Source: a virus (lineage: Duplodnaviria; Heunggongvirae; Uroviricota; Caudoviricetes). Taken from it: a DNA stretch of 64,000 nt. The translations under genes were made by a program, and so were the position numbers. Where the stretch lies: IMG/VR virus record IMGVR_UViG_3300035396_000446, positions 35,006 through 99,005 of that record; one strand, given 5' to 3'. This document shows positions 7,578 to 63,150 of this stretch, in pieces. The notes under the pieces were generated by a model. That model saw only the letters and a list, made by a program, of their open reading frames with translations, made no database searches and was not told where the DNA came from. Position 1 is the stretch's first letter; the number at the start of each line of letters is the position of its first letter.

Positions 7578-7867
7578 TCTTGACCTGTTACCGTTTCAGA
7601 AAATTTATTATCTTCTGCTTTTATTTTGTCTATGAACTTCTTATAATCAGACAAAGTAGTTAGCATTCCATCTGGAATAACATCTCGACCATTAAAAATA
7701 TGATCCTCAACTATTGTCTCGAAATCTGACAAATCTAACTCATCGAAAAAAGATATTAAGTTATTATACCTATAAAAATCAGATTCAGTAAAGTTTACAA
7801 CTTTCCCCTGTAGTTTGAAAAAGTGAGTAAGACATACATATAGCTGGCTATCTGTATTTTTCTCCAT
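7574..7867 (-). CDS. hypothetical protein
   Basis: 97-aa ORF with overlapping start and stop junctions to both neighbours. Confidence 0.4.
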   Translation of the reverse strand: MEKNTDSQLYVCLTHFFKLQGKVVNFTESDFYRYNNLISFFDELDLSDFETIVEDHIFNGRDVIPDGMLTTLSDYKKFIDKIKAEDNKFSETVTGQE

Positions 7868-8901
7868 TATATATCCAATAATTCATCCGAATTTATATTT
7901 GATACTTTTTTAGATTTATTTTCTTTTTTTAGGCCTTTGATTTGGTCTTGTACCTCTTTTAGTCTTTGACCAAGTAAAGTATCGGGGAGCGGTAGTCCAT
8001 TTATTAAAATATAACAAGCATCTTGCCCATCCTCGCAGTCTGACTCTGCAACGATTTTAAAGTAAGGCACCCACATATTTAATTTCTCCAATACAGAGAT
8101 TGTTATAGGTTTTTTTGTTTTAAAAAGAACAATTGCTTTTTTACCCTTAGATAAATCGAAATCTATAGATAAGCTATCGGGACCATTCTTTAGACTTAGT
8201 TCAAATATATTTAGAAATCCATGGTATTGTTTGTCTGGATATACAATTCTTTTAAACTCTTCTTTGTCTAAAGATTTTAAACCATTTAACTTGGGATTAC
8301 CTCTGAAGCTATCGAAATCGAACATTTTAATGCAAGCATCTACAATCTTGCTATTTACATCATACCATGTGAAGCCACCACCTTTCCCAAGATGCTTCTG
8401 ATAATCATCATTATTCACTATAACAGCAGTTATTAAACCATTCTCAATGTAATCTGTATTTATTTTTTGTAACAAAGCCAATGCATTTGAGCACGACGGA
8501 TTGCCCTCTAGAGATAAAGGAAGAATCATTGTTGTTTTAACAGTAATGTTCATCTGCAATAAGATGTCTATAATGAAAGGTAACGATCCAGACCCTGTTC
8601 CACCGCCAAGACCCGCAAAAATATTAACTTCATCTACTTCTGTGTCATCCAATAGAACTTGTTTCAAAAAATCTTGAACCTTATCCCTTACCTCAGAGAA
8701 AATCTCAACTGTTTTTTTGGGATTCCTACCTGACCCTTCACCCTTTCCTACTACTAATTTAATAGCAGAGGGTTCGGTTATCTTATTAAGATCGTCCTTT
8801 GCAGTATTTAAAAGTATCAATTTATATTTTCTACGAGTTTTGTTAAAATATTGTACCGCGACGTTACAACCTGACTCACCTAATCCAATAATGGCTTCCA
8901 T
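7867..8901 (-). CDS. FtsZ/tubulin-superfamily GTPase (phage TubZ/PhuZ/FtsZ-like)
   Basis: 344 aa with the G-box IIGLGESGCNVAV, LLNTAKDDL (FtsZ NTD-like), VVGKGEGSGRNP (T3-like), the tubulin/FtsZ signature AGLGGGTGSGSLPFI (GGGTG[ST]G), then TVKTTMILPLSLEG and a VNNDD T7-like loop. RBS AAGGA upstream of the ATG. Confidence 0.8.
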   Translation of the reverse strand: MEAIIGLGESGCNVAVQYFNKTRRKYKLILLNTAKDDLNKITEPSAIKLVVGKGEGSGRNPKKTVEIFSEVRDKVQDFLKQVLLDDTEVDEVNIFAGLGGGTGSGSLPFIIDILLQMNITVKTTMILPLSLEGNPSCSNALALLQKINTDYIENGLITAVIVNNDDYQKHLGKGGGFTWYDVNSKIVDACIKMFDFDSFRGNPKLNGLKSLDKEEFKRIVYPDKQYHGFLNIFELSLKNGPDSLSIDFDLSKGKKAIVLFKTKKPITISVLEKLNMWVPYFKIVAESDCEDGQDACYILINGLPLPDTLLGQRLKEVQDQIKGLKKENKSKKVSNINSDELLDI

Positions 8902-24537: not shown

Positions 24538-25407
24538 TTAAATATCAAATGTTTGTCCGACTTCTAGAAATCCTCGGAATCCGTCATCTTTTGCTTTTGT
24601 TTTCCAATCGCAAGGTTTCCCAAAGAAATCTTTATCATCAAGAACATAATCTTGATAATGACTTAACCACATTTTATTTTTAATTTCTAAAGGTAGCACC
24701 TCGGCATTTGCTTCTGGATACCCCGCTAATTCTGTGTAATTTGCATGTACCCCTGATTTGAAGGGTAGACACTCACAATCTTGAATAATAATATCAGCCT
24801 TAGAGTAAAACACTCTCACTTGTTTCGGGGAACAATGTTGGGAGTCCGTTGTAAAGTAAATAGATTGATGACCTTGCTTACTCACAATAAGGCCAAATGT
24901 ATCACTAATTTTAGATCCTGTCATTATGTGAACCTGTTGGATAAGTTCAAAGTTCCAACCCTGCCATATAAATGACTTATCTACGGGCTTTGGCTCAAAG
25001 TAAGTTTCAATTGTAGCGTCAAATCCCTCCATGGATTCTAAACCACCCCTTAATGTGTTTTTCCAAAGACTTTTAATTAATTCCTTCTGCGCATATAATT
25101 TAGGAGCATAGGGTTTCATCTTACCAATGTTTTCTAGCTGTGTAAAATCATTCCATCTTACAGGTCTATTCATCCAGTCATACCTATCAAAGGCGAAGTT
25201 CTCTAGAGATCCGCAATGATCGTTATGCTGATGTGAGATATATACACTATCTATATCTTTAAAAGATAACCCAGCATTTGTTAATGCCTCGGGGACTAGC
25301 CTCCCACAATCAATTAGCATTCGTTTGCCGTCCTGCTCTAGCACAAAGCTCTGATTAAAATTTCTTTTTGAGAATGCATTACCACATCCAATTATTGTTA
25401 TACGCAT
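24538..25407 (-). CDS. metallo-beta-lactamase-fold hydrolase (RNase Z/PhnP-like)
   Basis: 289 aa with MRITIIGCGNAF, LIDCG and ISHQHNDHCGSL (the HxHxDH zinc motif). Confidence 0.7.
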   Translation of the reverse strand: MRITIIGCGNAFSKRNFNQSFVLEQDGKRMLIDCGRLVPEALTNAGLSFKDIDSVYISHQHNDHCGSLENFAFDRYDWMNRPVRWNDFTQLENIGKMKPYAPKLYAQKELIKSLWKNTLRGGLESMEGFDATIETYFEPKPVDKSFIWQGWNFELIQQVHIMTGSKISDTFGLIVSKQGHQSIYFTTDSQHCSPKQVRVFYSKADIIIQDCECLPFKSGVHANYTELAGYPEANAEVLPLEIKNKMWLSHYQDYVLDDKDFFGKPCDWKTKAKDDGFRGFLEVGQTFDI

Positions 25408-25420
25408 ATTATTTTTCCTT

Positions 25421-26347
25421 TTATTTGATATAAAACCCGTTAGAATCTAACGTATCTATTTTTTGCTTTTGGGTTACAAAAACATCATAGAACTCATCTA
25501 CAATAAGTCTCATTTCTAAACTAAGCTGATTTAGTATTGGAGACTTGATTGCATTAGGTATTCCATAGAAAGCCTCTGCTATGCCCCCTACGATTGCGCA
25601 TAGAGTATCTGTATCCCCGCCTACCATAACTGCGTTTCGTATAGCATCTTCAAAGCTGGTAGAGTTTACAAAGCAATTAAAAGCTAAAGGCACTGTTCCT
25701 TGGCATGTTACATCGAACTTGTATGTTTTACTTATTACTTCTAAATCATCCCCAAGTAGGCTTCCCCTGTAAGGTGTCTCTACCCCTCGATAATGATCTG
25801 TGTATCCATTGATATAACATAAATCTAAAAACTTACACATGGAAGTATTAAAATCTCCCATCTCCGCTATGCTTGTTTGTAAAGCATTGTAAACCATTCC
25901 TGCTGTAGCTTGAGCCCCATATATGCCCTCTGAGTGATTATGGGTTACAGCCGCAGACTTAGCTGCTTCGATATGAATAGTTTCTATCGGGCAACTCAAA
26001 CTATAAGCGTATGCCACAGGAGCGACACGCATGGCTGACCCGTTACCATAACTATTGTAGGGGTTATTATCTTTATTTAACAGCCAAGCATGAAAACTCT
26101 GACCAAACCCAGATTTATACTTTCGTTGTTTATTAGAAAATGTGCTATTCTTAGAATACTTATTACCCCAATACTTATAGCATACCTCGTATGGCATTTT
26201 GTTTAACAGAGCATCCATAGTTGCTACTGTAAGAATTGTGTCGTCCGTAAAGAAACAAGAGTCATTAAACAAAGGAAAATCCTTGCTTCTATGATTCTCA
26301 AACTCGTATCTTGAACCTATGTAATCACCAATAATTGAACCTAACAT
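25421..26347 (-). CDS. ADP-ribosylglycohydrolase (ARH/DraG family)
   Basis: 308 aa with MLGSIIGDYIGSRYEF, FFTDDTIL, GNGSAMRVAPVAY and MVGGDTDT..AIVGGIAEAFYG, all hallmark ARH motifs. Confidence 0.75.
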   Translation of the reverse strand: MLGSIIGDYIGSRYEFENHRSKDFPLFNDSCFFTDDTILTVATMDALLNKMPYEVCYKYWGNKYSKNSTFSNKQRKYKSGFGQSFHAWLLNKDNNPYNSYGNGSAMRVAPVAYAYSLSCPIETIHIEAAKSAAVTHNHSEGIYGAQATAGMVYNALQTSIAEMGDFNTSMCKFLDLCYINGYTDHYRGVETPYRGSLLGDDLEVISKTYKFDVTCQGTVPLAFNCFVNSTSFEDAIRNAVMVGGDTDTLCAIVGGIAEAFYGIPNAIKSPILNQLSLEMRLIVDEFYDVFVTQKQKIDTLDSNGFYIK

Positions 26348-26952
26348 TTTTTATCCTTCTTATTTACTACCCATTTTTGTACGTCCATAAAGAGGATAAT
26401 GGGCGGTTCCCCTCTTCTTTTATGTTTGCTAAAATGATACCAGCCTACGACCATCATCCCTGTTTCAAATTTTCCATCTTCTCTAAGCTCGGAAGAGAAC
26501 ATGGGCATTCTGGATAATATATCCACGGAGCATAGGTAACTGCCATAAATATCTTTTTCAAACCTTTCTTGCCCAGACAAATGAGCAATTGGCATAAGTA
26601 AAAATACATTGTTTGCTATTTTTAGTGAATGTTCAATAATTTTCAAAGTATCTTTATACGGTGGGTTTGACACTATTACATCATATTTTTCTTTAATATC
26701 GAAGAAATTTACGCCAGTATTAAAGGAATTTACGCCGTCAGATATATCAGAGCCTGTTATGTCTAATTTATCATTCTTCTCTTTCAGAGCTTGTACTATG
26801 GCACCCTTACCCGCAAATGGCTCTAAAATTCGATTACCTTTTAGAAAACTACTATACATGCGGTAGAACTCATAGGTTATACCCTTTGGAGTTTGATACA
26901 TGTCATTTGGATTTCTTTGACCTACATTGGCCAAGGAGTATCTTTTACCCAA
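26341..26952 (-). CDS. DNA N6-adenine methyltransferase (phage Dam-like, NPPY class)
   Basis: 203 aa with YQTP near the N-terminus, ILEPFAGKGAI (motif I) and VIVSNPPYKD (motif IV). Confidence 0.7.
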   Translation of the reverse strand: MGKRYSLANVGQRNPNDMYQTPKGITYEFYRMYSSFLKGNRILEPFAGKGAIVQALKEKNDKLDITGSDISDGVNSFNTGVNFFDIKEKYDVIVSNPPYKDTLKIIEHSLKIANNVFLLMPIAHLSGQERFEKDIYGSYLCSVDILSRMPMFSSELREDGKFETGMMVVGWYHFSKHKRRGEPPIILFMDVQKWVVNKKDKKC

Positions 26953-28792: not shown

Positions 28793-30013
28793 TTATAGAA
28801 ACCTACCCATAAACTGATTTTTCGCTTCATCCAAGTTGCTTACTGATGTCAATAGATTGACATCAACAGAGGCACTCTTGTCCACGAACGTAGATCCTTT
28901 CGGGTCGGTTTTGGCCAACTCGGCCATACCTTGGTTTAGAATATTAATAGAGGCGTTATAGTCTCTATCTATTTCTAAACCACATTTTTCACATTTAAAA
29001 GTCCTATCTTTCAAAGTTAGATCAACTTTTTTCCAACCACAACTAGAGCATGTCTTACTGGAAGGGAAGAACCTATCTACTTGATGAATAGTTCTACCAT
29101 ACCAACCTGACTTATATTTTAATTTTGTAACAAAAGAAGACCAAGACACATCATGGATTGCTTTGGCTAGTTTGTGATTTCTCACTATTCCTTTTATATG
29201 TAAATCCTCCAAACAGATAACTTGGCTCTCGTTAGCTATTTTAGAAGATAATTCATTTAAAAAATGGTTTCTCTGATTTGATACATGAAGATGGACTTTT
29301 GCTAACTTTACTCTTTGTTTTTCATAACGATTACTTCCTTTTACTTTTCTACTTAGCCTTCTTTGTAGAGTCTTTGTTTTATTTTCTGAATTTCTTCCAA
29401 AATGGGGATTCTCTATAATAGTTTTATCAGACATTACAGCAAACTCTTTTAGGCCTAGATCTATCCCAATGGATTTTGACTGGACCGGTAAGGTAGGAAT
29501 TTCTACATCACATAAGATTGATGCGAAATAATGACCTACCTTATTTTTGGATATAGTCACGTTACATATTTTTATAGTTTGTAGTATATCAAGGTATGAC
29601 CCCGATGCCTTAAATGAAACAAACCCAAGTTTTAATAATTTTATCTTAGTCTCAAGTACTTTACAGAAAGTTTCTGTCTGTGGTTCTCTATATGAATCTT
29701 TCATCCCCTTCTTCTTAAACTTAGGGAACCCTGATCCCATCTTTTTCATATTTTTGAAAGCTTCTGTTAAATCATTTTGAGCTTGTTGTAGTCCCCTAGA
29801 AGACCCTAAGGCCAACCATTCCAACTCTTTCTTAAAATCTTTTGGATTTAATTGTTTAAAGCCCTCATAACTACCATGCTCTTTTTTCCAAGAAATAACA
29901 TGTTCAAGACATTTATTATACCAAAAACGACAGTTTCCTATTGTCTGATTAATTTGTTGTTCCTGTTTTTTGTTAGGATACAATCTGACTTTAAATGCCT
30001 TCTTTCGTATCAT
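28793..30013 (-). CDS. tnpB: TnpB (OrfB) RuvC-like RNA-guided nuclease, IS200/IS605 family
   Basis: 406 aa. N-terminal KVRLYPNKKQ...CRFWYNKCLE; RuvC-I IGIDLGLKEFAV; RuvC-II VICLEDLHIKG; zinc finger CSSCGW...CEKCG; RuvC-III DRDYNASINI. All catalytic residues present. Confidence 0.8.
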   Translation of the reverse strand: MIRKKAFKVRLYPNKKQEQQINQTIGNCRFWYNKCLEHVISWKKEHGSYEGFKQLNPKDFKKELEWLALGSSRGLQQAQNDLTEAFKNMKKMGSGFPKFKKKGMKDSYREPQTETFCKVLETKIKLLKLGFVSFKASGSYLDILQTIKICNVTISKNKVGHYFASILCDVEIPTLPVQSKSIGIDLGLKEFAVMSDKTIIENPHFGRNSENKTKTLQRRLSRKVKGSNRYEKQRVKLAKVHLHVSNQRNHFLNELSSKIANESQVICLEDLHIKGIVRNHKLAKAIHDVSWSSFVTKLKYKSGWYGRTIHQVDRFFPSSKTCSSCGWKKVDLTLKDRTFKCEKCGLEIDRDYNASINILNQGMAELAKTDPKGSTFVDKSASVDVNLLTSVSNLDEAKNQFMGRFL

Positions 30014-30438: not shown

Positions 30439-32049
30439 TTAATACTCTATATCATCAAAAAGTAATGGGATACTTTCTTGAAACTCTTTTAGTAAAGGTC
30501 TCATTAACTCATGCATAATTGGATGTGCTACATCAGCAGTTCGTAAATCCATAATGTGTCGCCACTCTCTAATATTTGTGGTAACAACGATATCTGCTTT
30601 AATTCCAATAGGAAGTACATCCCTTGCAACTTGTGCTTTTACACCCATTCCAATAAGTTTCATGTAATTATTTTGAGAAGATTCCCAAGAGGATAAGAAT
30701 ATATCCTTGGCTTCTTGTCCAAGATTTTCAATATAGTCTGGAATGATTACTGAAATTTCGTTTCCGAACTTTTCTTTTGAATAATTCACGTATCTTGTAC
30801 TGTTATGGGTGATAAATCCTTCAGCAACATAATTGTTTAAAGGAGAGTTCATCTCCAAATCATAAAAAAACTCTTCTACTCCAATCTTTTCTATACTCGT
30901 TATTCTAGATAGTTTGGTATAAGAACATTTTTTCATCTCTTTATGGATCAACTTATGGCATTTGACACATAAAGGTAAAAGATTATACTCCTCATTATTT
31001 TTGGTATCTTTATCCGAGTGATGTCTCTCCTTTGCAGTGGACCCACAATTTAAGCATACAACCTCCTTTAATGAGAAGTTTCTATTAGCTCTACTATACC
31101 CATTCTTTACAGAGTTGCCTAGCCACGCACTATTTTCTTCACCTTTCCCGTTGTTGTGATGGTGGTTTCTTAATGTCTCGGCCTGTTTAGCTACAGATTT
31201 ATTTTCTGACTCTTTTACCCCACGATTCCATACTACCCTCCCATTCTTATATTGATTGTCTATTGTTTCTTTCATTTTTTTATAAGAATCTTCAGTATGA
31301 TTTATGTTGTATTTTCCTGGGTTTTTATCATTTTTCCTAGGAGTAAAAACATTTAATTTTTTAAGGATACGTATAATGCTTCTATATGGAATTTTATGCT
31401 TTTCACTTATTTCCAGAGGGCTCAAGTCTTTGTACTCTTCCACTAGTGAATCCTCGTCTATATTTAAGAGAGATGGTCTTCCGTTGACATTAATATACTC
31501 GCCAACTTTAAGATTTTTTACTGAATCATACTCGTTACTGTTCCTTAATAATTTGTGCTCGCAAGAACAGTCTAAGGAGTACCCTTCTTCCGTGTTAGCC
31601 CTGTATACATCTCCACCTTTCTTTTTGAATACGTGCATAATCTTATTGGCGACTATTAACTGATCATTTGTTACACTTTTTGCTAAGGGAAGGCTTTCCC
31701 CCTTTTCTTGCAGCTCATGTAGTTCTTCAATTGTTATCTTTGTCCCATCTGACATACTTATTTTTGTATTACCTGTGACACATTCCTGGGCAAAAGAAGC
31801 TAAACGCATTCTAACAATTTCATGGCTGAATCCCCGGTTTCCGTGGAATAGAACAGATATTACAGGAGCATGTTCAATCATCGCTTCATGTTTATTTTTA
31901 AGTAAAGTAGCAATCATTTTAAGATCGCTACCCTCTTGAATCAGATCTTCTGATTTATAACAAACCCTAGCAATTCTCTCAATCTGTTTTGTGAACTCTG
32001 TATTCCTGATGTCAGTTAAAATTTCATATGTTGGTTTTATTAATCTCAT
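30439..32049 (-). CDS. thyX: flavin-dependent thymidylate synthase ThyX interrupted by an intein
   Basis: N-extein (aa 1-89) has ARVCYKS and HxxIxxxRxRLASFAQE. The sequence is then broken by C (CVTGNTKI) and resumes after ...ITHN with STRYVNY, restoring the ThyX R(H/M)RxxSxxxxSxRY motif. Exteins total about 209 aa. Confidence 0.8.
   Translation of the reverse strand: MRLIKPTYEILTDIRNTEFTKQIERIARVCYKSEDLIQEGSDLKMIATLLKNKHEAMIEHAPVISVLFHGNRGFSHEIVRMRLASFAQECVTGNTKISMSDGTKITIEELHELQEKGESLPLAKSVTNDQLIVANKIMHVFKKKGGDVYRANTEEGYSLDCSCEHKLLRNSNEYDSVKNLKVGEYINVNGRPSLLNIDEDSLVEEYKDLSPLEISEKHKIPYRSIIRILKKLNVFTPRKNDKNPGKYNINHTEDSYKKMKETIDNQYKNGRVVWNRGVKESENKSVAKQAETLRNHHHNNGKGEENSAWLGNSVKNGYSRANRNFSLKEVVCLNCGSTAKERHHSDKDTKNNEEYNLLPLCVKCHKLIHKEMKKCSYTKLSRITSIEKIGVEEFFYDLEMNSPLNNYVAEGFITHNSTRYVNYSKEKFGNEISVIIPDYIENLGQEAKDIFLSSWESSQNNYMKLIGMGVKAQVARDVLPIGIKADIVVTTNIREWRHIMDLRTADVAHPIMHELMRPLLKEFQESIPLLFDDIEY
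30802..31782 (-). other. intein (327 aa) with embedded HNH homing-endonuclease domain, inserted in the ThyX RHR/SxRY active-site motif
   Basis: Cys+1 at 31782-31780; terminal His-Asn (30807-30802) followed by Ser+1 (30801-30799, checked against the nucleotides). HNH module: CLNCGSTAKERHHSDKDTKNNEEYNLLPLCVKCHKLIH. Confidence 0.75.
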
Positions 32050-42830: not shown

Positions 42831-43667
42831 TTATTTCGCTAGATTAACAAAAGGGAGAGATCCACCAGGAATCATTGTTCCAGGTAAAGCACCATTCCAT
42901 TTATCAATCGCTTTTTCTTCGAGTTCGATTCTTCGCCATTCAATAAGAGAATTATTAATAGAACTTGACAAAACCTGATTAGCTTTTGCTTCGGCAGAGG
43001 CTTTTACGACAGTTTTCTCTGCTTCCCATTTAGTTTTCTCCAATTCATTCTTTGCTTTATCAGCGTCTTGAATTGCTTGAACCTTATTATTAAGAGCAGT
43101 TACCACGTTTTCAGGAAGTCTAATGGAACCAATATAGTATAGATTATCAACAATAATCCCTTGCGAAGAAAATCTAGTTTGGATTTGTTTTAAAACTTCT
43201 TTAAGTAGGTCAGTTTTACCTTCTCCATATACATATTCTACAGGGTATCTACTTGCTGTATTATTGAAAGCATCTCTTACTGCATTCCTAAGAACAATAT
43301 CCGTCAACTCTTCTACGCCTTTTCTATATTTAGAAAATATAGCTGTAACGTTAGTTGGGTTAATATGGTATTCAATTCCAAGGTCTGTATTAACTGACAT
43401 TCCTTCACTTGTTTGAAAAGTAAAAGATTCGTCGTTAGAAGATCCTTCGTCTTTTCCGGCAGTCCAGACATAGTTTTGTTGATAAGTTGGGAAAATATAG
43501 AGTTCTTCGTTCATACCAATGTAGTAACGTCCTACTCCAAGCTCTATAGAATCAATACCTTTTTGTTGTCCTAGTAGAAATACTTTGATTCCCACGTGTC
43601 CAACAGGTACCCGCTGACATGATAAAATTGTCGCTATAAATAGCACACCTAGTAATATTTTTTTCAT
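42831..43667 (-). CDS. SPFH/band-7 (prohibitin/HflK-like) lipoprotein
   Basis: 278 aa. Signal peptide with lipobox ILSC. SPFH-type start VPVGHVGIKV; coiled-coil ENVVTALNNKVQAIQDADKAKNELEKTKWEAEK. Confidence 0.6.
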   Translation of the reverse strand: MKKILLGVLFIATILSCQRVPVGHVGIKVFLLGQQKGIDSIELGVGRYYIGMNEELYIFPTYQQNYVWTAGKDEGSSNDESFTFQTSEGMSVNTDLGIEYHINPTNVTAIFSKYRKGVEELTDIVLRNAVRDAFNNTASRYPVEYVYGEGKTDLLKEVLKQIQTRFSSQGIIVDNLYYIGSIRLPENVVTALNNKVQAIQDADKAKNELEKTKWEAEKTVVKASAEAKANQVLSSSINNSLIEWRRIELEEKAIDKWNGALPGTMIPGGSLPFVNLAK

Positions 43668-46231: not shown

Positions 46232-46591
46232 TTAGTCATTATTTTCTCCTACTTTAAACCATAATTCATCTTGGCTATAGATATTTCCATTATAGTTTGT
46301 AAATATTTCTTCATTTTCATTAATATCTTTAATAGAAATAAATAAGAACAGATTATTTTCGAAATCTGGAACATACATAGCATTTGGGGTGTATGAATGA
46401 TTATAGAGTGACCCATAACCGGTAACAAAACAAAAATAATCTGAATCCCAATTAAAACTATAATCATCTTTTTCTATTATTACAGCCCTACTTATTTTTA
46501 TTATAGGACATTTTTCTATAATTCTACTACTTCGAATAAATTGAGTGGCATATACTCCTAGACCCATATTATTTTTTCTAAATTGTATCAC
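46232..46591 (-). CDS. hypothetical protein
   Basis: 119-aa ORF. Confidence 0.35.
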   Translation of the reverse strand: MIQFRKNNMGLGVYATQFIRSSRIIEKCPIIKISRAVIIEKDDYSFNWDSDYFCFVTGYGSLYNHSYTPNAMYVPDFENNLFLFISIKDINENEEIFTNYNGNIYSQDELWFKVGENND

Positions 46592-53900: not shown

Positions 53901-54160
53901 TTTATTTTTCCTCTTTTTTTAGGTTCAACATGTTCTCTGGTGTCTAGAATATTTTTTATAGCTTGGTATTTAGACTTATATCGTTCATTCCAATCTTTTT
54001 TGCGTTTACAATCCTCGCATTCACAATCCCACACATAATCCTCCAACCCAGTTAAAAAAGGAGTTCGGAAGTACTTTTTCTTATAAGTTAAAAGCCTTTT
54101 AGTTGATAAAGCTTTTAAAGCTTTAATAGAGAGTTCAATATCAGGAAAGCTCAATCTCAT
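53897..54160 (-). CDS. hypothetical protein
   Basis: 87 aa with CECEDCKRKKDW. Confidence 0.35.
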   Translation of the reverse strand: MRLSFPDIELSIKALKALSTKRLLTYKKKYFRTPFLTGLEDYVWDCECEDCKRKKDWNERYKSKYQAIKNILDTREHVEPKKRGKIK

Positions 54161-54573
54161 TTTAAAATTTCTCCTTCAATATCTTCAAATCTTGCTTTCA
54201 TTTTCTCGATAGATTCTGCTGGCACATCATGAATAGAACCATAATCACTTGTCATTCTAAAAATTGTTACTTGATAACCTAACTTTTCAGCAAGTTCTAG
54301 ATAAGACTCCATTTCCCATTTCTGGGTAAAAGTATTAGACACTATAACACCTTTACTTTGTTTCATCATTTCCATTGCAGTCTTTTTGCACCACTCATGG
54401 GCATTTTTAATCCTAGAGCCATCAAAGTCATAATGTCCATCTACATCTTCAAAGTACATATCAGCTTCTAGATGGACATAACCCTCCATTTCCAATTGGT
54501 ACGTCAAATTTGCTTTAACAAACGTGGATTTTCCAGAGCCAGGCGTTCCGCGCACGAGAATGAGATGTTTCAT
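54157..54573 (-). CDS. P-loop kinase, T4 polynucleotide-kinase (Pnk) kinase-domain-like
   Basis: 138 aa. ILVRGTPGSGKSTFVKANL matches T4 Pnk ILTIGCPGSGKSTWAREFI. KGVIVSNTF...LAEKLGYQVTIF...VPAESIEKMKARF tracks Pnk GVIISDTN...AKEYGWKVEHKVF...VPIDVLRSMYKSM. Confidence 0.5.
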   Translation of the reverse strand: MKHLILVRGTPGSGKSTFVKANLTYQLEMEGYVHLEADMYFEDVDGHYDFDGSRIKNAHEWCKKTAMEMMKQSKGVIVSNTFTQKWEMESYLELAEKLGYQVTIFRMTSDYGSIHDVPAESIEKMKARFEDIEGEILK

Positions 54574-56065: not shown

Positions 56066-56094
56066 ATTTTACCATGATATATGATTTTTGTCAA
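56066..56094 (-). promoter_or_regulatory. sigma70-type promoter TTGACA-N17-TAAAAT (TGg extended -10)
   Basis: Minus strand: TTGACA (plus 56089-56094), 17-nt spacer ending CATGG, TAAAAT (plus 56066-56071). Overlaps the 3' end of the nucleotidyltransferase gene and marks the end of the five-gene operon. Confidence 0.5.
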
Positions 56095-57026
56095 CCTTCT
56101 TTTATGTATTTTTCAGTTAAATCTATAAGATATTTATTTATTTTATCAAAATCAGATCTTTCTGGAAGCGTAGAGTTTTGCTCAACTTCTTGGAATTTCT
56201 TAAATAAGACATCGCAGATTTCCATTACTTCTTCAAAAGTATATATCCCTGTTTTAGTATTAAGAATAACTTTTCTATGTTCTTCAATCATAGGCAATTG
56301 AATAGTTTTCGTTTCTGCTAGTTCTAGTCCCTGATACAGTAGGCGAAGTAGATGCCCGGCGAACTTGCACTCAAATCCATACTTCCGAATATTATCTGCC
56401 CTAGATCCATAAGCATCTATTTCTTTTTTAAGATGGTCTCTTACTTGCTGCATTGGTTGTTTCACCATATAGGCTCTATTCTCACCTACTTTATTTTTAA
56501 ATGCGCCGTAGTGTAAGCCAGATAAAACTTGAACATCATATTCAGTCAAAGTATCATTTGAAATAGATGTGACATAATCATAGGAATTCTTTAAAGCATT
56601 AAATCTTTCTGTTTTTGTTTTAAGTAACTTTCTTTGCTCATTGCTATAACCAAAGTATGATTTAAACAAATTCTTAGTTATAAACATATCCTTCATACTT
56701 TGAATTTCAAAGTATAGGTCGGAGGTAAACAGCCTTTTCGACTCAGGAACAAAGAATAGTTCAAGAATATTTGGATTTGCTTTCATCGCTAATTCAAAAA
56801 ATCTATGGATAGAATACATAGTTGAGTCAATATCCTCTTTGCTATTTGCTGAGTAATTATCCCCTGTAGATGCTTGATATTCATCTCCCCTTGTAAGACC
56901 AAATAGCTCATTTTTAGATTTCATGAATAAACCGCAGTAATCCGTATCGGACGAAGGGGTATCGGTCCCATAGAGTTTAGAGCCTGAGTAACATATCATT
57001 ATTTTATTTGGTATGTTTTCAAACAT
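56091..57026 (-). CDS. polymerase-beta-superfamily nucleotidyltransferase with cGAS/OAS/CD-NTase (SMODS)-like active-site signature
   Basis: 311 aa. N-terminal ICYSGSKLYGTDTPSSDTDYCGLFM matches GS-x3-GT-x4-SDxD-hydrophobic, as in OAS1 [22 protein letters not shown] and cGAS-like enzymes. A further acidic EDID lies about 40 aa downstream. Helical C-terminal domain. Confidence 0.55.
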   Translation of the reverse strand: MFENIPNKIMICYSGSKLYGTDTPSSDTDYCGLFMKSKNELFGLTRGDEYQASTGDNYSANSKEDIDSTMYSIHRFFELAMKANPNILELFFVPESKRLFTSDLYFEIQSMKDMFITKNLFKSYFGYSNEQRKLLKTKTERFNALKNSYDYVTSISNDTLTEYDVQVLSGLHYGAFKNKVGENRAYMVKQPMQQVRDHLKKEIDAYGSRADNIRKYGFECKFAGHLLRLLYQGLELAETKTIQLPMIEEHRKVILNTKTGIYTFEEVMEICDVLFKKFQEVEQNSTLPERSDFDKINKYLIDLTEKYIKEG

Positions 57027-57036
57027 TATTATATCC

Positions 57037-58668
57037 TTAGCTGCTAATTTTGTATATAGTTTTATCTTTTATTCCCAATACCTGGTCTTCCCTATTGACT
57101 AACTTATATTCAGATAAGCCAGAATTAGGTATAACTTTTACATCATTTTGAGACACTGACTGAGCAAAAATTTCTGCGGAGTCATCCCCATTGACTTTAA
57201 ATACCACGCCCTTTGGTAAGCAAACAAAGTTTATACCACTATAGGATATATCCTTATTTATTCTAACAATTGGGTCTGTATATTCTTTTGAGAACTTAAA
57301 GATATATTCGTCGTACTTGCCTTGATAACTACTAATTATCACAAGTACAGTTTTATCGAACTTAGCATCTACTATTTGACCTTTAATATCTTTTAAAGGT
57401 AACTGCATATGCGTTTTCTTATTAGGAAAAAAAGATAATACAGGAGTTCCTAGTAGATTTTGAATAGCACATCCTGTATAAAATGTGGTTGCATTAGGTA
57501 GTACAGATGCTACAGGGTATAAAACAGGATAGGTTGCTGTTAGGTCAGTAATTTCTACTATTTGCTCCCCTATAAGTACATATACTCTTCCCTCGTAATT
57601 CAGGATGTTCTTTACTGCGCCACTATAAGTCCCTTTGATAGTTTTTAATTTATTGATATAATGTAGCTCTCTATTTTTTAATTCAACATAGAAAAACTCT
57701 TTGCCATTATCTAATATTGAAACTATCCCCTCTAAATCTATAGAATCTACATAGGTTTTAGAGGAAGTATAGACAATCTCCACTGCTCCAATTTTCTTGT
57801 AATTAACAATATCCGAGTCTTTACTAATATATTGATCAATCTTAAAAACACAAACGGTATCAATATGTTTTTGAATAACCACTACCGATCCCACTTGGTC
57901 TATCATGTTTGGGTCTAATCTCTTACCTTGCTCGAAGATAGCATGGAACCAACCTTTATAGTTCTGAGGAATCATATTGAGATCCGCCACAGGGGGCACT
58001 GAAACTTCTGCATTTAATACCGACAAGTTTTTTAGCATCCTGTCATTGATATCTTTTACTGTTGGGTGCTTCCCCTTATAAGGATGTATGCCAGTTAACA
58101 TCTGAAATGCTAATACAGCATAGGAAAACCAATCTGTTTCTTTTGAAAACTGTTTGGCATGTCTATCTCTAATACTATCCATAATAGCCGTAGCAGGGTA
58201 CGTCTTGGTTTGATAAGAATCTACATCAATTGCATATAATTTCTTAAAAGACGAATCTAATAGAAAATTGAGTTCATTCATGTCTACTATAAGGATGTTA
58301 TTAGAGTGACAATTATTCATTATAACCTGTAACTGCTTCATAAGATTTACAATAGTGTCTGCTTTTATTTGATTTCTCACTTTAAAAGCTTTTGTAAATA
58401 TTTGACACAAAGCAGTAGTATCTGTCACATAATTCATAGTATACCCAACTGCTTTCGTACCCTCATAAATGATGTCTTCTGGTTTAATAATACTTGGCTC
58501 TTTTAATACCGCCAACTCTTTAATCTTATCGGTAGGAATCATTTTATTGGGGTCTATATATAGTTTATAGGCTACCCCATCTTTTGCATAGATATGACCT
58601 TCCCCGCCGGAAGCGACAAAGTTATTTTTTGTTAAATCAATGTGTCTGTTTTTAACTGTTACTTGCAT
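57037..58668 (-). CDS. eukaryotic-like Ser/Thr protein kinase with about 290-aa C-terminal extension
   Basis: 543 aa. Gly-loop ASGGEGHIY; VAYKLY (beta3 Lys); catalytic loop HSNNILIVDMNELNFLL (like HRDLKPENILL); AIDVDS in the DFG position; FSYAVLAFQMLTGIHPY in the APE/alpha-F region. Confidence 0.7.
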   Translation of the reverse strand: MQVTVKNRHIDLTKNNFVASGGEGHIYAKDGVAYKLYIDPNKMIPTDKIKELAVLKEPSIIKPEDIIYEGTKAVGYTMNYVTDTTALCQIFTKAFKVRNQIKADTIVNLMKQLQVIMNNCHSNNILIVDMNELNFLLDSSFKKLYAIDVDSYQTKTYPATAIMDSIRDRHAKQFSKETDWFSYAVLAFQMLTGIHPYKGKHPTVKDINDRMLKNLSVLNAEVSVPPVADLNMIPQNYKGWFHAIFEQGKRLDPNMIDQVGSVVVIQKHIDTVCVFKIDQYISKDSDIVNYKKIGAVEIVYTSSKTYVDSIDLEGIVSILDNGKEFFYVELKNRELHYINKLKTIKGTYSGAVKNILNYEGRVYVLIGEQIVEITDLTATYPVLYPVASVLPNATTFYTGCAIQNLLGTPVLSFFPNKKTHMQLPLKDIKGQIVDAKFDKTVLVIISSYQGKYDEYIFKFSKEYTDPIVRINKDISYSGINFVCLPKGVVFKVNGDDSAEIFAQSVSQNDVKVIPNSGLSEYKLVNREDQVLGIKDKTIYKISS

Positions 58669-59512
58669 TTGTTATTTCCTTTGGAAATATGATAGAGGAT
58701 ATTGATATATCATCGTAATGTGTAATGTTATTTTTCTTACATTCTTTCAAGAACTTATTCATCGTTCTCTGAGTAACCCCAGATGTGAGTAGTTTAAAAT
58801 CATTCATCTTTTTCACAATAGTAATTGGGTCGATAGGATTATTCTCTGCATCTAAGAAAGAAAAAACTCCGTCAGACATTACAGATACATATTCTACAGA
58901 CCCCTTGGTAACATTATGACTGAAATGACACTCTAGAACGTCACGCTTGATATTTGAAATTTCAAGCCCACCAGCTTGCGTTAATATACTATGTAAAGTG
59001 TAGGAACTCTTATTTAAAATATCTACCTTTGCTTTACGGTTTAAATCATATGAGTATATTGGATAATACGGGTACCCCGATTCATAAGAGAGCAAAAATA
59101 GTTGGGAGTCTCCGTCAATGTATTTTATATAAACGGCACCATCTCCTATAGCTTTAATACATATTTCTCTACCTAGCTCCAAAGCATACAAAAGAGTAGC
59201 ATCTATAGGAGTTGTTCCATCTGTATTTTTAATCCCGAAATCTCGTTCTACTATATCTAATGCAGTTTTTACAGTTTGGACAATACTTAGGTCGCCTCGG
59301 TCAATCGTAAGATTATTTTTTAAAACATTTGCCAACACCATGGAACCTATATGGGTGTTCCCTGACCCCGAGCATCCGTCTGATATAATCGCTATACCAT
59401 TTCCTGACGTAGCATGGTCTTCACAAAAGACGTGGGTATTTCCTTTGGCAAAATAAAAATCTGTAAACATGGTGAACCACCTATTGAATTTTTTTGTAGC
59501 TAAGGTACACAC
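58652..59512 (-). CDS. PP2C-family (PPM) Ser/Thr phosphatase
   Basis: 286 aa with FCEDHATSGNGIAIISDGCSGSG (ED...DG.G motifs I/II), VMSDGVF and C-terminal YDDISISSIIF (DDIT motif). Confidence 0.65.
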   Translation of the reverse strand: MCTLATKKFNRWFTMFTDFYFAKGNTHVFCEDHATSGNGIAIISDGCSGSGNTHIGSMVLANVLKNNLTIDRGDLSIVQTVKTALDIVERDFGIKNTDGTTPIDATLLYALELGREICIKAIGDGAVYIKYIDGDSQLFLLSYESGYPYYPIYSYDLNRKAKVDILNKSSYTLHSILTQAGGLEISNIKRDVLECHFSHNVTKGSVEYVSVMSDGVFSFLDAENNPIDPITIVKKMNDFKLLTSGVTQRTMNKFLKECKKNNITHYDDISISSIIFPKEITNASNS

Positions 59513-59536: not shown

Positions 59537-60289
59537 TTAAATGCTTAGACTAATTGGCTTTGAAGCTCCGCCTGATCCAAGCGATTGGCTTTGAGCACTG
59601 ATTGACTTACTAACAAACTGAGCGAGTTTTGCAAGTGTATTCGCATTTGCATTATCGATCTTTTCGTATTGAGAAAACTCTGCTTCTGTTTTGAAGTCAG
59701 TAAGAAACTTATCAACATCTACGTCAGAGGTATTCACCCCGATTAGAATTGTTAGAATAGATTCCAAACTGGTCTCTTCTTTTTGAACTTGTTTAATGAG
59801 TTTTGCAACTTCTTTAGATGTATTTGTTGATTGATTATCATCACCATCTGTGATAACAAATACAATACCATTTACATCGAAATCTTGTGCTGTAAGCTCT
59901 GCGCCATATTGTCTTGTTGCCTCGATACCATTGATTGTTGCATCAAACAACGCAGTCATACCGTAAGGTTTAACAGCATCTTGGTAATCTGACAAATTAC
60001 ACTCGGAGAGCAGTTTGAACCCGTGCTGTTCTGTAACATCTGCATTGAATGAAACGAGTCGGATCATAAGATTATCGGCTCTTGGGGATTTTTGACAAGA
60101 TTTAACAACTTCTTGAATCGCTTTTACAAGGTCATCTCGGAATGAACTTACGGAACCAGATACGTCTACTACTAGAGTAACTAAAGTGTATTCCGAACTA
60201 CCAAGATTTACTAATTTTGTTTTACTGAATTGAAAGCCCCCTGTTTTAACTGCGGGGGTAACTTCCATTGTGTCTGTATTGAATCTCAT
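59537..60289 (-). CDS. von Willebrand factor A (vWA) domain protein, TerY-like
   Basis: 250 aa with MIDAS LVVDVSGSVSS, a downstream T (GMTALFDA) and VFVITDGDDN. Confidence 0.65.
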   Translation of the reverse strand: MRFNTDTMEVTPAVKTGGFQFSKTKLVNLGSSEYTLVTLVVDVSGSVSSFRDDLVKAIQEVVKSCQKSPRADNLMIRLVSFNADVTEQHGFKLLSECNLSDYQDAVKPYGMTALFDATINGIEATRQYGAELTAQDFDVNGIVFVITDGDDNQSTNTSKEVAKLIKQVQKEETSLESILTILIGVNTSDVDVDKFLTDFKTEAEFSQYEKIDNANANTLAKLAQFVSKSISAQSQSLGSGGASKPISLSI

Positions 60290-60304: not shown

Positions 60305-61105
60305 TTATTTAAGGAATTCGTTTGTTGTGGATAACTTCATACCGCGAGCAACCATGCTGTTGATGAAGTCATCTTGGTCTTTCTCGAAACCTGTTACAGG
60401 GCTAGTTGCGTCAGTAAGAAGGGTTACTTTACTTACATATTTGTCTCCGCCTAGAGCATCAACAATATCAATAAGAGTAAACTTCAAACAATGACTTCCT
60501 GCTTCCCCTGCGATAACAAGGTTGTCCACAGCCTCTAAACTTTCAGTAAGGGTAGTATTAAGCTGTGTGCTTAGGTCCGCTGGATCGGGAACTTCTGCTT
60601 TAACTGCTGAATAATGTTCTGTAAGGAAATTGCTCCCTTTTGTAACATAGTCAACATTTGCCACATATTTATCGCCCCAGGTAAGAAGAGATGTATATAG
60701 GTCTGATACAATTTGTGTTCCCCAACTTCCAATAAGGCAATGAGCTGGCCATACACATAATAGATAACGTCCGTTATCTTTAAGAGCCTTAGTGTAAGAT
60801 AGCGCATATTTAGAGAAAGAAGGTATCGTTGGCATCCATGTCCCATTTGCAACATCATCATAAGAGATGATTGTAAACGGATTCGGTTTTTGTCCAGAGG
60901 AATTTTTCCAAAACCCTGGGTGGGCGATGTCAAGTAAGTGATGGCTGTCTAAAGTAACGTGAATGTCCGTTAGTTTAGCACCAACTCGGTCAATCATTTT
61001 TGCAAGTCGAGACATATCTTTGTCTGCACCTGCAACAAAAAGCGCACCTTTAGAGTCACAGAAGTCATTCTGTGGGTCGATGATAAGTAATTGTGTGTTT
61101 TGCAT
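60305..61105 (-). CDS. pncA: nicotinamidase (PncA-like, isochorismatase superfamily)
   Basis: 266 aa. LLIIDPQNDFCDSKGALFVAGAD matches M. tuberculosis PncA IIVDVQNDFCEGGSLAVTGGA. TLDSHHLLDIAH is the D/H metal site. WPAHCLIGSWGTQI matches WPPHCVSGTPGADF. LVIAGEAGSHCL is the catalytic Cys region. Confidence 0.7.
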   Translation of the reverse strand: MQNTQLLIIDPQNDFCDSKGALFVAGADKDMSRLAKMIDRVGAKLTDIHVTLDSHHLLDIAHPGFWKNSSGQKPNPFTIISYDDVANGTWMPTIPSFSKYALSYTKALKDNGRYLLCVWPAHCLIGSWGTQIVSDLYTSLLTWGDKYVANVDYVTKGSNFLTEHYSAVKAEVPDPADLSTQLNTTLTESLEAVDNLVIAGEAGSHCLKFTLIDIVDALGGDKYVSKVTLLTDATSPVTGFEKDQDDFINSMVARGMKLSTTNEFLK

Positions 61106-61138
61106 ATATTATCCTGTTAGTTTTTTTTTAGGAAGCTT

Positions 61139-61167
61139 ATTATACCATGATTGTATAAAAAAAGCAA
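61139..61167 (-). promoter_or_regulatory. sigma70-type promoter TTGCTT-N17-TATAAT (TGg extended -10) for the pncA-vWA-PP2C-kinase-NTase operon
   Basis: Minus strand: TTGCTT (plus 61162-61167), 17-nt spacer ending CATGG, TATAAT (plus 61139-61144). Leader ends ACAGGATAATAT-ATG of pncA. Confidence 0.55.
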
Positions 61168-61218: not shown

Positions 61219-61698
61219 TTATTTAGTTTTAGTATAAACTGTTTCTAAAAAGAATATACTAGAAGACGGCTCACTTAGAGGTTGCGGCACTATTGATTCT
61301 GTATTACATAACGGGATAGAAATTTTATTTGATGAAGAAATTTTACTCTGATATTTCTTTTTCTCATCTCTTTCTCTCTCTTTTTGTTCTTCAGTTATCT
61401 CAATATAGCAAGATTTAAACCCAGGGAACTTGCCTGTATCTCCCTCCATTCTCCAACATCTTTCCCAATCCCAGTCAGTCTCTGAAACAGTTTTATTATA
61501 ATGAATAGTACGGAAATTAAAAGGATGAATCCAAAACTTATGTTCTTCCTCTCCTGAACATTGATAGCAAGAGTTCCCATCCATAACCATACGGTATGAC
61601 CATATATGTTTAAGTTTTTCATTGCATATCGGGCAGTGCAAATAAGTATCTTCTTCTTCTACTTTTCTCTTTTGTGCTTCTAAAATGCTAATTGCCAT
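61219..61698 (-). CDS. zinc-finger protein
   Basis: 159 aa with CPICNEKLKH...CYQCSGEEEH. Confidence 0.4.
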   Translation of the reverse strand: MAISILEAQKRKVEEEDTYLHCPICNEKLKHIWSYRMVMDGNSCYQCSGEEEHKFWIHPFNFRTIHYNKTVSETDWDWERCWRMEGDTGKFPGFKSCYIEITEEQKERERDEKKKYQSKISSSNKISIPLCNTESIVPQPLSEPSSSIFFLETVYTKTK

Positions 61699-62098
61699 CT
61701 AAATCTCCTGATTTTAATGCGGAAACTTCAGTGCAAGACATACAGTTACCGTCTTTGTCTTTTCTTAGTGGTTGCTCACACTTTGAACACTCTTGGTATG
61801 GGATAACCTCCTTAAAATAAAGGTTATCTTCCCATTCCCCGAAATAATCTTGAGTGTGGTCATACCTTACCTCAACCAAATAGACACCGACAGCTAATTT
61901 GTAATAAAAACCCATCCCATCCATATCCTCTTGTAGCTCATCAAACACATAATCATTATGACATTTATCTATATTGAGTATCTGAAGTAAATGAGCTTCT
62001 AGATTACAGTCTATAGCAATAAGACAAAATGGGTGCTCGGTCCCAGGAATATAATCCTCTTCTTGTTCCCTTACTTCCATTTGCATTAGCTTTAGCAT
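61688..62098 (-). CDS. hypothetical protein, C-terminal Cys cluster
   Basis: 136 aa ending CSKCEQPL...CMSC. Confidence 0.4.
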   Translation of the reverse strand: MLKLMQMEVREQEEDYIPGTEHPFCLIAIDCNLEAHLLQILNIDKCHNDYVFDELQEDMDGMGFYYKLAVGVYLVEVRYDHTQDYFGEWEDNLYFKEVIPYQECSKCEQPLRKDKDGNCMSCTEVSALKSGDLDGN

Positions 62099-63150
62099 TC
62101 TTCTTGTCCATTATCTGTATCAACTACACCTGCTTCCTTATCAAGATATTCATGAAACCATCTTCTAGCTTCTTTAGAGATATGCCCGTTGACGCTTTTA
62201 GGCTCAAGATTATTCTTAATAAGCGTATCCATTTCTTCTTTCATAACATCATTTACAACCCATCTCAAGAAGTCGCCTGTTTTCTCCACTACAGGAGGTT
62301 CATTTGCAAATACAATAGAAATACCCTGCATAAGTCTATTCTCTGTTACAGCATATTCAACAAACTCTTTTATACCTTCCATTTTCTCTACATCAACAGC
62401 GGATAAAGTCGTAACACGGGAACTACTATGCTTCTCTCCCTTCGTTTTGAAAATTATACGGTTATCACCTAAATATGTCTCCCATACAATTCCTTCTCCA
62501 ACACCCTCTACCCCAAAAGCTTTTCCAACGGGGCATTGAGTTTCTACTTCTTCTACATACTCAATCATTTTCTTTTGAGCAATATGTGGGTTCTCAAAGT
62601 CGATGTCTATTTCATATGTTTTAAAAGAAAGAATATTGTAGATGTTATGCTCTTTAAGGTCATTAAAATAAGACGCATCAAACTCTTTAAGCCACTTCCC
62701 TTCCGTCTCGTTCTCTACAACATTTGATAATTTTACACCAAATACTACAAACATCTTATTAGGAAGTTGGGAAAGGGCTACTCCTTTTTGAATGCTTTGA
62801 CCACACCATTCACCATAGATAGAGATAATATCTGCGTCTGTTTTTATAGTAGAAAACATATGTTTAAATACTTCTTTCTTGCTCTCTACAAAGAAAGCAA
62901 AACCGGCGTTATCTTTTTCAATAGTAATAATATTTTCTCTTGACTGCGCCCACATGTCGCCTGTTTTTGTATTAAAACACACCCCTGAATTCGTACCATG
63001 GAGTTTGACTGTTCCTCTAAACTTAATAATAGGCAACTTTATAGTTCTATCATACCCTTTCTCTTTATCTACGAATTGAACCCTATCAGATACGGCTCGA
63101 ATTGTTTGTCTAAATTGTTGTGTCTCTGGGTAACTAATTAATTTTTTCAT
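62092..63150 (-). CDS. RNA ligase, Rnl2 family (T4 gp24.1-like)
   Basis: 352 aa. Motif I TVKLHGTNSGVCF matches T4 Rnl2 REKIHGTNFSLI. IYGEWCGQSIQKGV matches FGEFAGPGIQKNV. EGIVWETY is motif IV-like. IIFKTKGEKH is motif V (K-x-K). Confidence 0.7.
   Translation of the reverse strand: MKKLISYPETQQFRQTIRAVSDRVQFVDKEKGYDRTIKLPIIKFRGTVKLHGTNSGVCFNTKTGDMWAQSRENIITIEKDNAGFAFFVESKKEVFKHMFSTIKTDADIISIYGEWCGQSIQKGVALSQLPNKMFVVFGVKLSNVVENETEGKWLKEFDASYFNDLKEHNIYNILSFKTYEIDIDFENPHIAQKKMIEYVEEVETQCPVGKAFGVEGVGEGIVWETYLGDNRIIFKTKGEKHSSSRVTTLSAVDVEKMEGIKEFVEYAVTENRLMQGISIVFANEPPVVEKTGDFLRWVVNDVMKEEMDTLIKNNLEPKSVNGHISKEARRWFHEYLDKEAGVVDTDNGQEEC

Follow-up and report, generated by a model that had tools for sequence, protein, structure and literature searches.

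A predicted long-form PncA-type nicotinamidase heads a conserved vWA/PP2C/kinase cassette linked to NAD+ salvage in a jumbo-class phage

Introduction

Depleting NAD+ is one of the antiphage strategies met most often, and experiments have established three phage pathways for rebuilding it: NARP1 (Adps and Namat), NARP2 (Nampt and Nmnat) and NARP3 (PnuC and NadR), all of which follow the amidated route. A deamidated phage route starting from a nicotinamidase is so far known from annotation only. In the part of PMC11662467 available to us, pncA, pncB, nadD and nadE are annotated computationally in 'NAD-jumbo phages', and in the available part of PMC12484599 gp275 of phage G is described as PncA-like; the same parts of both sources make no mention of an association of pncA with genes for vWA (von Willebrand factor type A), PP2C phosphatase and kinase proteins. 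Here we describe a gene for a PncA-like protein in a 64,000-nt stretch of phage DNA (IMG/VR record IMGVR_UViG_3300035396_000446, positions 35,006 to 99,005; hereafter the window), which is part of a 190,870-bp metagenome contig in the European Nucleotide Archive, and the conserved cassette of four genes that it leads.

Three further described systems bear on this locus. The PncA/Pnc1 nicotinamidases have been solved structurally (PDB 2h0r, 2wta, 3pl1 and 1ilw). NrtR is a Nudix-related regulator of bacterial NAD metabolism. Finally, the TerY-P triad joins a vWA protein, a PP2C phosphatase and a Ser/Thr kinase with a C-terminal zinc ribbon, which is replaced by an OB fold in the defence version (Anantharaman et al. 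2012 and Gao et al. 2020, as given in the available part of PMC11090510).

An earlier sequence-only reading of the window had proposed that the gene encodes a phage nicotinamidase, and had held that known phage pathways use other enzymes. The latter is true of NARP1-3, but jumbo-phage pncA, pncB and nadE and the PncA-like protein of phage G had already been annotated computationally. Finding a nicotinamidase in a phage is therefore no novelty in itself; the new element, as far as checked, is its lead position in a nicotinamidase/vWA/PP2C/kinase-propeller cassette, which lies within Preiss-Handler clusters of huge phages and occurs in bacteria of several phyla. No description of a nicotinamidase together with this triad was found in the literature, including a 2022 survey of viral NAD+/ADP-ribose systems, although subscription journals fall outside that coverage and the absence is not proof.

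Results

The PncA-like protein carries the active-site residues of nicotinamidases

The 266-aa translation contains the motifs IIDPQNDFC (D10), TLDSHH (D53 and H55), WPAHC (H122), YVTKG (K156) and IAGEAGSHC (C206), and the Pfam Isochorismatase family (PF00857) spans residues 4-263 (E 1.7e-7, 31.9 bits against a cut-off of 27). Its best sequence match in the PDB was the yeast nicotinamidase Pnc1 (2h0r), with E 1.1e-7 from the single sequence and 1.3e-9 from a family profile, and nicotinamidases made up all but one of the family-profile matches at E <= 1e-3. In the PDB alignments, D10, K156 and C206 lie opposite Pnc1 D8, K122 and C167, D53, H55 and H122 lie opposite Pnc1 D51, H53 and H94, and D10, H122 and C206 lie opposite D8, H71 and C138 of Mycobacterium tuberculosis PncA; these Pnc1 and PncA residues are the catalytic triad and metal ligands of those enzymes. 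Within the superfamily, nicotinamidases are marked out by an Asp/His/His metal site to which the pyridine nitrogen binds. All six residues were invariant in a 22-sequence family alignment, and five of them were 100% conserved across 134 non-identical homologues; D10 stood at 89% in the group associated with the vWA/PP2C/kinase triad because trimming had removed some N-termini.

The AlphaFold model of the protein (mean predicted local distance difference test score, pLDDT, of 83) returned nicotinamidases as its best eight Foldseek matches (E 1e-12 to 1e-9), with enzymes from Acinetobacter baumannii, yeast, Pyrococcus horikoshii, Drosophila and Leishmania amongst the nicotinamidases matched; target-normalised template-modelling scores for these eight were 0.72-0.80, except for the 327-residue Drosophila enzyme (0.51). 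The sequence-only reading had assigned this open reading frame (ORF) to the PncA type from the motifs it quoted. The ORF listing and the Pfam, PDB and Foldseek matches confirm this at a level far above chance, and every residue that it named, the catalytic Cys and Lys included, aligns with a catalytic or metal-site counterpart in the solved nicotinamidases.

The likeness to PncA and Pnc1 thus covers the fold, the Asp-Lys-Cys triad, the Asp/His/His site and the WPxHC and DxQNDF motifs. Unlike those enzymes, the PncA-like protein is about 265 rather than 180-216 aa long, shares only some 20% identity with them, scores below the NCBI equivalog cut-off, has additional conserved residues (H62, E163-H164 and H205) and is usually followed by the vWA/PP2C/kinase genes. 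Judged by sequence, it represents a distinct long-form PncA-type subfamily and not an equivalog of Escherichia coli PncA. Its assignment as a metal-dependent cysteine amidohydrolase of PncA type is supported, and we consider it highly probable that its chemistry is that of a nicotinamidase.

The long-form family is large, comprising 711 clusters at 50% identity (E <= 1e-30), with confirmed matches in at least 568 species genomes, among them those of Armatimonadota, Acidobacteriota, Desulfobacterota, Myxococcota, Proteobacteria, candidate-phyla-radiation bacteria and other groups. A neighbour-joining tree mixes the viral sequences with the bacterial ones, a pattern suggestive of repeated exchange. 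When 50,697 deposited phage records were searched by tblastn, four matched, three of which were uncultured huge phages, and megablast of the 7.1 kb around the gene found no match amongst deposited phages; the phage therefore has no close cultured relative. Fusions of the domain amongst library representatives involved only ankyrin repeats, a second copy or unannotated N-termini, and are uninformative for the triad: in P0456 and P0503 (about 1,230 aa each) the domain is C-terminal, after ankyrin repeats, and P0361 (614 aa) contains two matched stretches of it.

The PncA-like gene leads a conserved four-gene cassette

Gene linkage was counted from both ends of the cassette. Anchoring on the nicotinamidase, 30 viral and 80 genome loci were fetched, of which the 28 viral and 52 genome loci with at least 5 kb downstream were counted, and locus ORFs were searched with profiles built from the window and one further locus (L002). 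The full vWA/PP2C/kinase triad lay downstream on the same strand in 24/28 viral and 23/52 genome loci, and vWA plus kinase in 31/52 of the latter. Nicotinate phosphoribosyltransferase (NAPRTase) was encoded within 10 kb in 8/28 viral and 16/52 genome loci, and in six cases its gene directly adjoined the PncA-like gene without the triad. Only 1/28 viral and 6/52 genome loci had neither triad genes nor NAPRTase.

The reverse test, anchored on the kinase, used 74 viral loci on contigs of up to 619 kb and scored features within 10 kb. PP2C was present in all 74 of these, the PncA-like gene in 72, vWA in 71 and all four cassette genes in 71; NAPRTase was found in 40, NadE in 22 and a NadM-type adenylyltransferase in 13. 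In at least 14 of the 74, NAPRTase and/or NadE were nested between the PncA-like gene and the kinase. Bacterial homologues (about 60% identity), located in housekeeping surroundings on chromosomes of 4.1-4.4 Mb, show the order PncA-like, 247-aa protein, PP2C, 552-aa protein and NAPRTase, and the cassette of a 595-kb huge phage (LR756511) begins in the same way.

Taken together, the PncA-like gene is the lead gene of a conserved cassette consisting of PncA-like, a vWA protein with a metal ion-dependent adhesion site (MIDAS), PP2C and a Hanks-type kinase-propeller protein, a linkage that we regard as practically certain. The cassette is spread over jumbo and huge phages and bacteria of several phyla. 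The sequence-only reading was right as to the PncA type but incomplete, as the triad that accompanies the gene in 71/74 viral loci went unmentioned.

NAD+ salvage genes lie around the cassette in relatives

Neighbouring genes were typed by Pfam: NadE by CN_hydrolase plus NAD_synthase, NadM by CTP_transf_like plus NUDIX, and NAPRTase by the presence of both its domains. NadE, an enzyme that only the deamidated route requires, accompanies the cassette in relatives. In bacteria the gene just upstream often encodes NrtR (NUDIX plus the NrtR winged helix); NrtR was present in 19/48 bacterial genome loci, and in 14 of these it lay within 1.5 kb upstream of the PncA-like gene. Bacterial cassette loci thus resemble the NrtR regulon, but NrtR is rare in phage loci (1/26 and 5/74), and none was found in the readable part of this phage's contig (record positions 25367-106110; 81 kb, or 42% of the 190,870 bp).

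In relatives NAPRTase, NadE and NadM lie beside or around the cassette, and NrtR lies next to bacterial copies. This context strongly favours a link with NAD and supports the cassette as the point of entry into deamidated (Preiss-Handler) NAD+ salvage. The best-supported reading, conversion of nicotinamide to nicotinate as the first step of that route, draws on the nicotinamidase-specific metal site, the direct adjacency of PncA-like and NAPRTase genes in some genomes, the co-occurrence of NadE and the link with NrtR. The genomic pairing with NAPRTase in relatives is as in classical pncA-pncB salvage, and relatives of this phage with NAPRTase, NadE and NadM beside the cassette resemble the NAD-jumbo phages. 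The called genes of the part read include no Pfam families of Adps plus Namat, Nampt plus Nmnat or PnuC plus NadR.

Cassette partners point to reversible protein phosphorylation

Coordinates of the cassette genes and of the other features discussed below are collected in Table 1. The vWA-like protein matched PHROG 7371 (E 5.6e-14) and, weakly and below the cut-off, Pfam VWA_2 (E 0.0089); its MIDAS motif was conserved in 87 and 27 homologues, and neither the single sequence nor a family profile found a sequence match in the PDB. Residues 219-243 form a conserved Ser-rich C-terminal tail (LAxFxSxSISxQSQxLGxGG). F225 and S229 do not vary in it, and conservation reaches at least 90% at S227, S234, L237 and G240. 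Because it is unusually conserved and Ser-rich, this tail is a plausible candidate phospho-acceptor for the neighbouring kinase.

The phosphatase scored 27.1 bits against Pfam PP2C_2 (cut-off 24) and retains the metal-binding Asp residues D18, D32, D45-G46, D124, D214 and D267-D268 (numbering of the 286-aa form); nothing meaningful was found for it amongst PDB sequences with either the single sequence or a family profile. The kinase matched Pfam Pkinase (E 1.3e-9), and in an alignment built from database matches the Gly-loop G21-G22, K35, D129, N134, D148, D179 and P196 were invariant, with W180 and G193 at least 90% conserved. Its AlphaFold model (pLDDT 85) shows an N-terminal kinase domain followed by an all-beta region (276-543). 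Foldseek matched the kinase part to CDK2 and IRAK4 and the C-terminal part to the LRRK2 kinase-WD40 region and the Hsv2 propeller; this propeller could be a sensing or docking domain. That a Hanks kinase and a PP2C phosphatase occur as a pair implies that proteins are phosphorylated reversibly.

The fifth gene, which encodes an RlaP-family nucleotidyltransferase, is probably co-transcribed with the cassette. It is not a core member, lying within 10 kb of the cassette in only 6/28 PncA-anchored and 6/74 kinase-anchored viral loci.

Table 1. Features of the window, in window coordinates.
Feature	Coordinates	Strand	Basis
Predicted long-form PncA-type nicotinamidase, 266 aa, ATG start	60305..61105	-	Single ORF at exactly these coordinates
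vWA-like protein, 250 aa; MIDAS D42-x-S44-x-S46 / T112 / D148	59537..60289	-	Pfam VWA_2, PHROG 7371, motifs
PP2C-type Ser/Thr phosphatase, 272 aa from ATG (longest ORF from GTG 59512)	58652..59470	-	Pfam PP2C_2
Hanks-type kinase (about 1-250) with C-terminal all-beta propeller-like domain (276-543)	57037..58668	-	Pfam Pkinase, AlphaFold
RlaP-family nucleotidyltransferase, 10 nt past the kinase	56091..57026	-	Pfam RlaP, PHROG 388 (E 1.2e-67)
Promoter-like element: -35-like TTGCTT (61167-61162), 17-nt spacer, extended -10 TGGTATAAT (61147-61139)	61139..61167	-	Consensus match only
Shine-Dalgarno-like AGGA, 6 nt ahead of the ATG at 61105	61112..61115	-	Read from sequence
Small Cys-rich ORF (CxxC pairs)	61219..61698	-	DUF4428 match weak
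Small Cys-rich ORF (CxxC pairs)	61688..62098	-	DUF4428 match weak
RNA ligase	62092..63150	-	
T4-type portal	362..2338		
Tubulin-family protein (PhuZ-like)	7867..8901	-	
Apyc1-like metallo-beta-lactamase (Anti-Pycsar)	24538..25407	-	Pfam label
ADP-ribosylglycohydrolase	25421..26347	-	Pfam label
Eco57I-like protein	26341..26952	-	Pfam label
TnpB/IS605 OrfB	28793..30013	-	
ThyX thymidylate synthase, intein-interrupted	30439..32049	-	
Band_7 (SPFH) protein	42831..43667	-	
SET-domain protein	46232..46591	-	
Zeta_toxin/AAA_33-like small kinase	54157..54573	-	

Operon layout

The sequence-only reading had placed the PncA-like gene first in its operon. Its ATG is preceded by a gap of 113 nt with a promoter-like element and an AGGA, the next four genes downstream are packed at 15, 66, -17 and 10 nt, and the fifth gene (RlaP) is immediately followed by a strong promoter-like site close to consensus. 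Because of these features, the first-gene assignment is reasonable and, on sequence, plausible. Against it, the upstream genes lie on the same strand, no terminator was predicted, and transcription may read through from them. The sequence TGNTATAAT was counted 14 times in the window, where 7.5 occurrences would be expected.

Two small Cys-rich ORFs lie directly upstream of the cassette, and no homologue of either was found in the 115 loci checked. The cassette is flanked by RNA-repair-type genes, RlaP just downstream and an RNA ligase upstream. Past the end of the window (L001 1912-7944) follow genes for a second ligase of T4 Rnl1-like type, for Thg1, for a polysaccharide deacetylase and for a HAD_SAK_2 protein. 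In related phages, genes of the RNA ligase, Thg1 and Nudix kinds are kept near the cassette.

The host phage

The source is a jumbo-class phage. Its contig encodes a T4-type portal, a Gp23 major capsid protein, an S77 prohead protease and a tubulin, and further called genes include an intein-containing ThyX and those for TnpB, an SNF2 helicase, RNA ligases and Thg1; nearly all window ORFs lie on one strand, and GC content is about 32%. The tubulin-family gene is close to the portal gene, the capsid and protease genes are just left of the window, and TnpB lies just downstream of ThyX. Three adjoining genes, for Apyc1-like, ADP-ribosylglycohydrolase and Eco57I-like proteins, may form a counter-defence cluster and a second tie to ADP-ribose/NAD biology. 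SET-domain, Band_7 and Zeta_toxin-like genes stand amongst otherwise unannotated small genes.

Discussion

We consider it likely that this locus encodes a long-form nicotinamidase leading a mobile cassette, which serves as an entry to Preiss-Handler salvage and is coupled to a phosphorylation switch. The PncA-like protein would hydrolyse nicotinamide to nicotinate and ammonia via Asp10-Lys156-Cys206, with the pyridine nitrogen held by a metal on Asp53, His55 and His122. NAPRTase would convert nicotinate to nicotinate mononucleotide (NaMN), NadM or NadD would carry this to nicotinate adenine dinucleotide (NaAD), and NadE would amidate NaAD to NAD+. Kinase, phosphatase and vWA protein would act as a reversible phosphorylation switch on or through the Ser-rich vWA tail, gating or scaffolding the salvage enzymes, and the four-gene cassette, which would be mobile, would recycle nicotinamide freed by NAD+-consuming enzymes during infection.

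Several observations weigh against this reading. The best NCBIfam model for the PncA-like protein, the bifunctional nicotinamidase/pyrazinamidase equivalog NF008623, scored 56.6 bits and did not reach its cut-off of 174, which makes the protein a member of a divergent long-form subfamily whose specificity may differ; it also contains extra segments, such that 67 residues separate H55 and H122 against 41 in Pnc1. The vWA assignment rests on sub-threshold Pfam matches together with motifs. Among the 134 homologues, neither residues nor indels set PncA-like proteins that accompany the triad apart from those that do not. A dedicated docking interface thus finds no support in the sequences, and direct contact between nicotinamidase and triad is conjectural. 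The single possible vWA-PP2C fusion (L040 10342-12423, + strand), one ORF in an Armatimonadales metagenome-assembled genome, may be either real or an assembly or stop-codon artefact.

The later salvage steps are a further such point. NAPRTase, NadE, NadD, NadV and NadR were all absent from the called genes of the 81 kb read, and a profile of 21 phage NAPRTases, in an uninformative search, placed no protein from a 190,870-bp contig among the best 120 of more than 8,000 matches. The sequence-only reading had suggested diversion of nicotinamide into the Preiss-Handler route, and had looked to NAD-salvage homologues elsewhere in the phage as a check. The first suggestion gains from NAPRTase, NadE, NadM and NrtR near the cassette in relatives but finds no counterpart in the part read, where the check came back empty; such a diversion therefore needs host enzymes, or phage genes outside the region read, for its later steps.

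The most serious alternative is a TerY-P-like conflict or signalling system, captured by the phage as a defence module or used in counter-defence. Here the PncA-like protein would be an effector that removes nicotinamide or a nicotinamide-containing signal, relieving product inhibition or blunting NADase immunity, and NAD+ resynthesis would be secondary. Adjoining vWA, PP2C and Ser/Thr kinase genes are present as in TerY-P, with the three domain types in one operon, their active-site motifs intact and the same predicted logic of a reversible phosphorylation switch with a MIDAS vWA protein; according to the available part of PMC11090510, some versions of that triad are stand-alone antiphage systems. 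The cassette is very common in huge phages, this phage also encodes the Apyc1-like and ADP-ribosylglycohydrolase genes, and the only PADLOC matches of the kinase are the defence kinases PD-T4-6 and MADS Mad6. The vWA and PP2C proteins, by contrast, had no PADLOC match even at E <= 10, in a collection that includes TerY-P models. The C-terminus of the cassette kinase (276-543) is modelled as a beta-propeller, where TerY-P kinases carry a zinc ribbon or an OB fold, and the cassette triad, common in phage genomes, is tied to enzymes of NAD salvage and not to nucleases or restriction systems. Bacterial copies, moreover, sit amid housekeeping genes, often with NrtR adjoining and with NAPRTase, as expected of metabolism and not of a defence island. 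We regard this explanation as distinctly unlikely.

Still less probable, in our estimate, is that the protein is an isochorismatase-fold hydrolase for another substrate, such as nicotinamide mononucleotide, nicotinamide riboside, a different pyridine carboxamide or some unrelated amide, with the extra segments forming a lid over a larger substrate. This would suit its score far under the PncA equivalog cut-off, its excess of about 50-80 residues over bacterial PncA, the low-confidence loops (123-126 and 170-180) near the active site, and the appearance of maleamate amidase, biuret hydrolase and RutB lower in the Foldseek list. It sits poorly with full conservation across the family of the Asp/His/His site typical of nicotinamidases, with several genomes in which NAPRTase, whose substrate is the predicted product, directly follows the PncA-like gene, and with the co-occurrence of NadE, which only the deamidated route needs. 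The idea of a lone auxiliary metabolic gene in a coincidental arrangement with unrelated neighbours, which draws on the tight one-strand packing that makes adjacency alone mean little in this window, is refuted by the neighbourhood census, since the same order recurs in 71/74 viral loci anchored on the kinase and 24/28 anchored on the PncA-like gene, as well as in bacterial chromosomes from several phyla.

Within the favoured reading of a nicotinamidase-led salvage cassette, its parts differ in strength. The ORF, its residues, its fold and the linkage of the genes are shown, whereas the substrate, the way the switch works and the gain during infection are inferred. That the triad regulates salvage is a real possibility, which we hold at somewhat below even. 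A specific use of the cassette by the phage to counter NAD+-depleting immunity is doubtful on present evidence. The cassette shares with NARP1-3 the principle of phage-borne enzymes rebuilding NAD+ from breakdown products or precursors, and nicotinamide also starts NARP1 and NARP2. It differs in that its route would be deamidated (nicotinamide, nicotinate, NaMN, NaAD, NAD+) and accompanied by a kinase/phosphatase module. We offer only tentatively, as a rather unlikely extension, that it constitutes a phosphorylation-gated, deamidated NAD+ reconstitution as a fourth phage route beside NARP1-3, in which the propeller would sense NAD+ breakdown or infection state and the vWA tail would switch salvage on.

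Nicotinamidase and triad are tied near-obligately in more than 70 large-phage contigs, and the linkage extends to bacteria from several phyla. This points to NAD+ salvage being controlled post-translationally, of which no published description was found, and the cassette may explain the role of a widespread class of triads resembling TerY-P. Its four genes are a concrete, clonable unit that can be tested against NADase defence systems. If the phospho-gated module is real, eukaryote-like kinase signalling would for the first time be seen to control NAD+ salvage directly in bacteria and their viruses.

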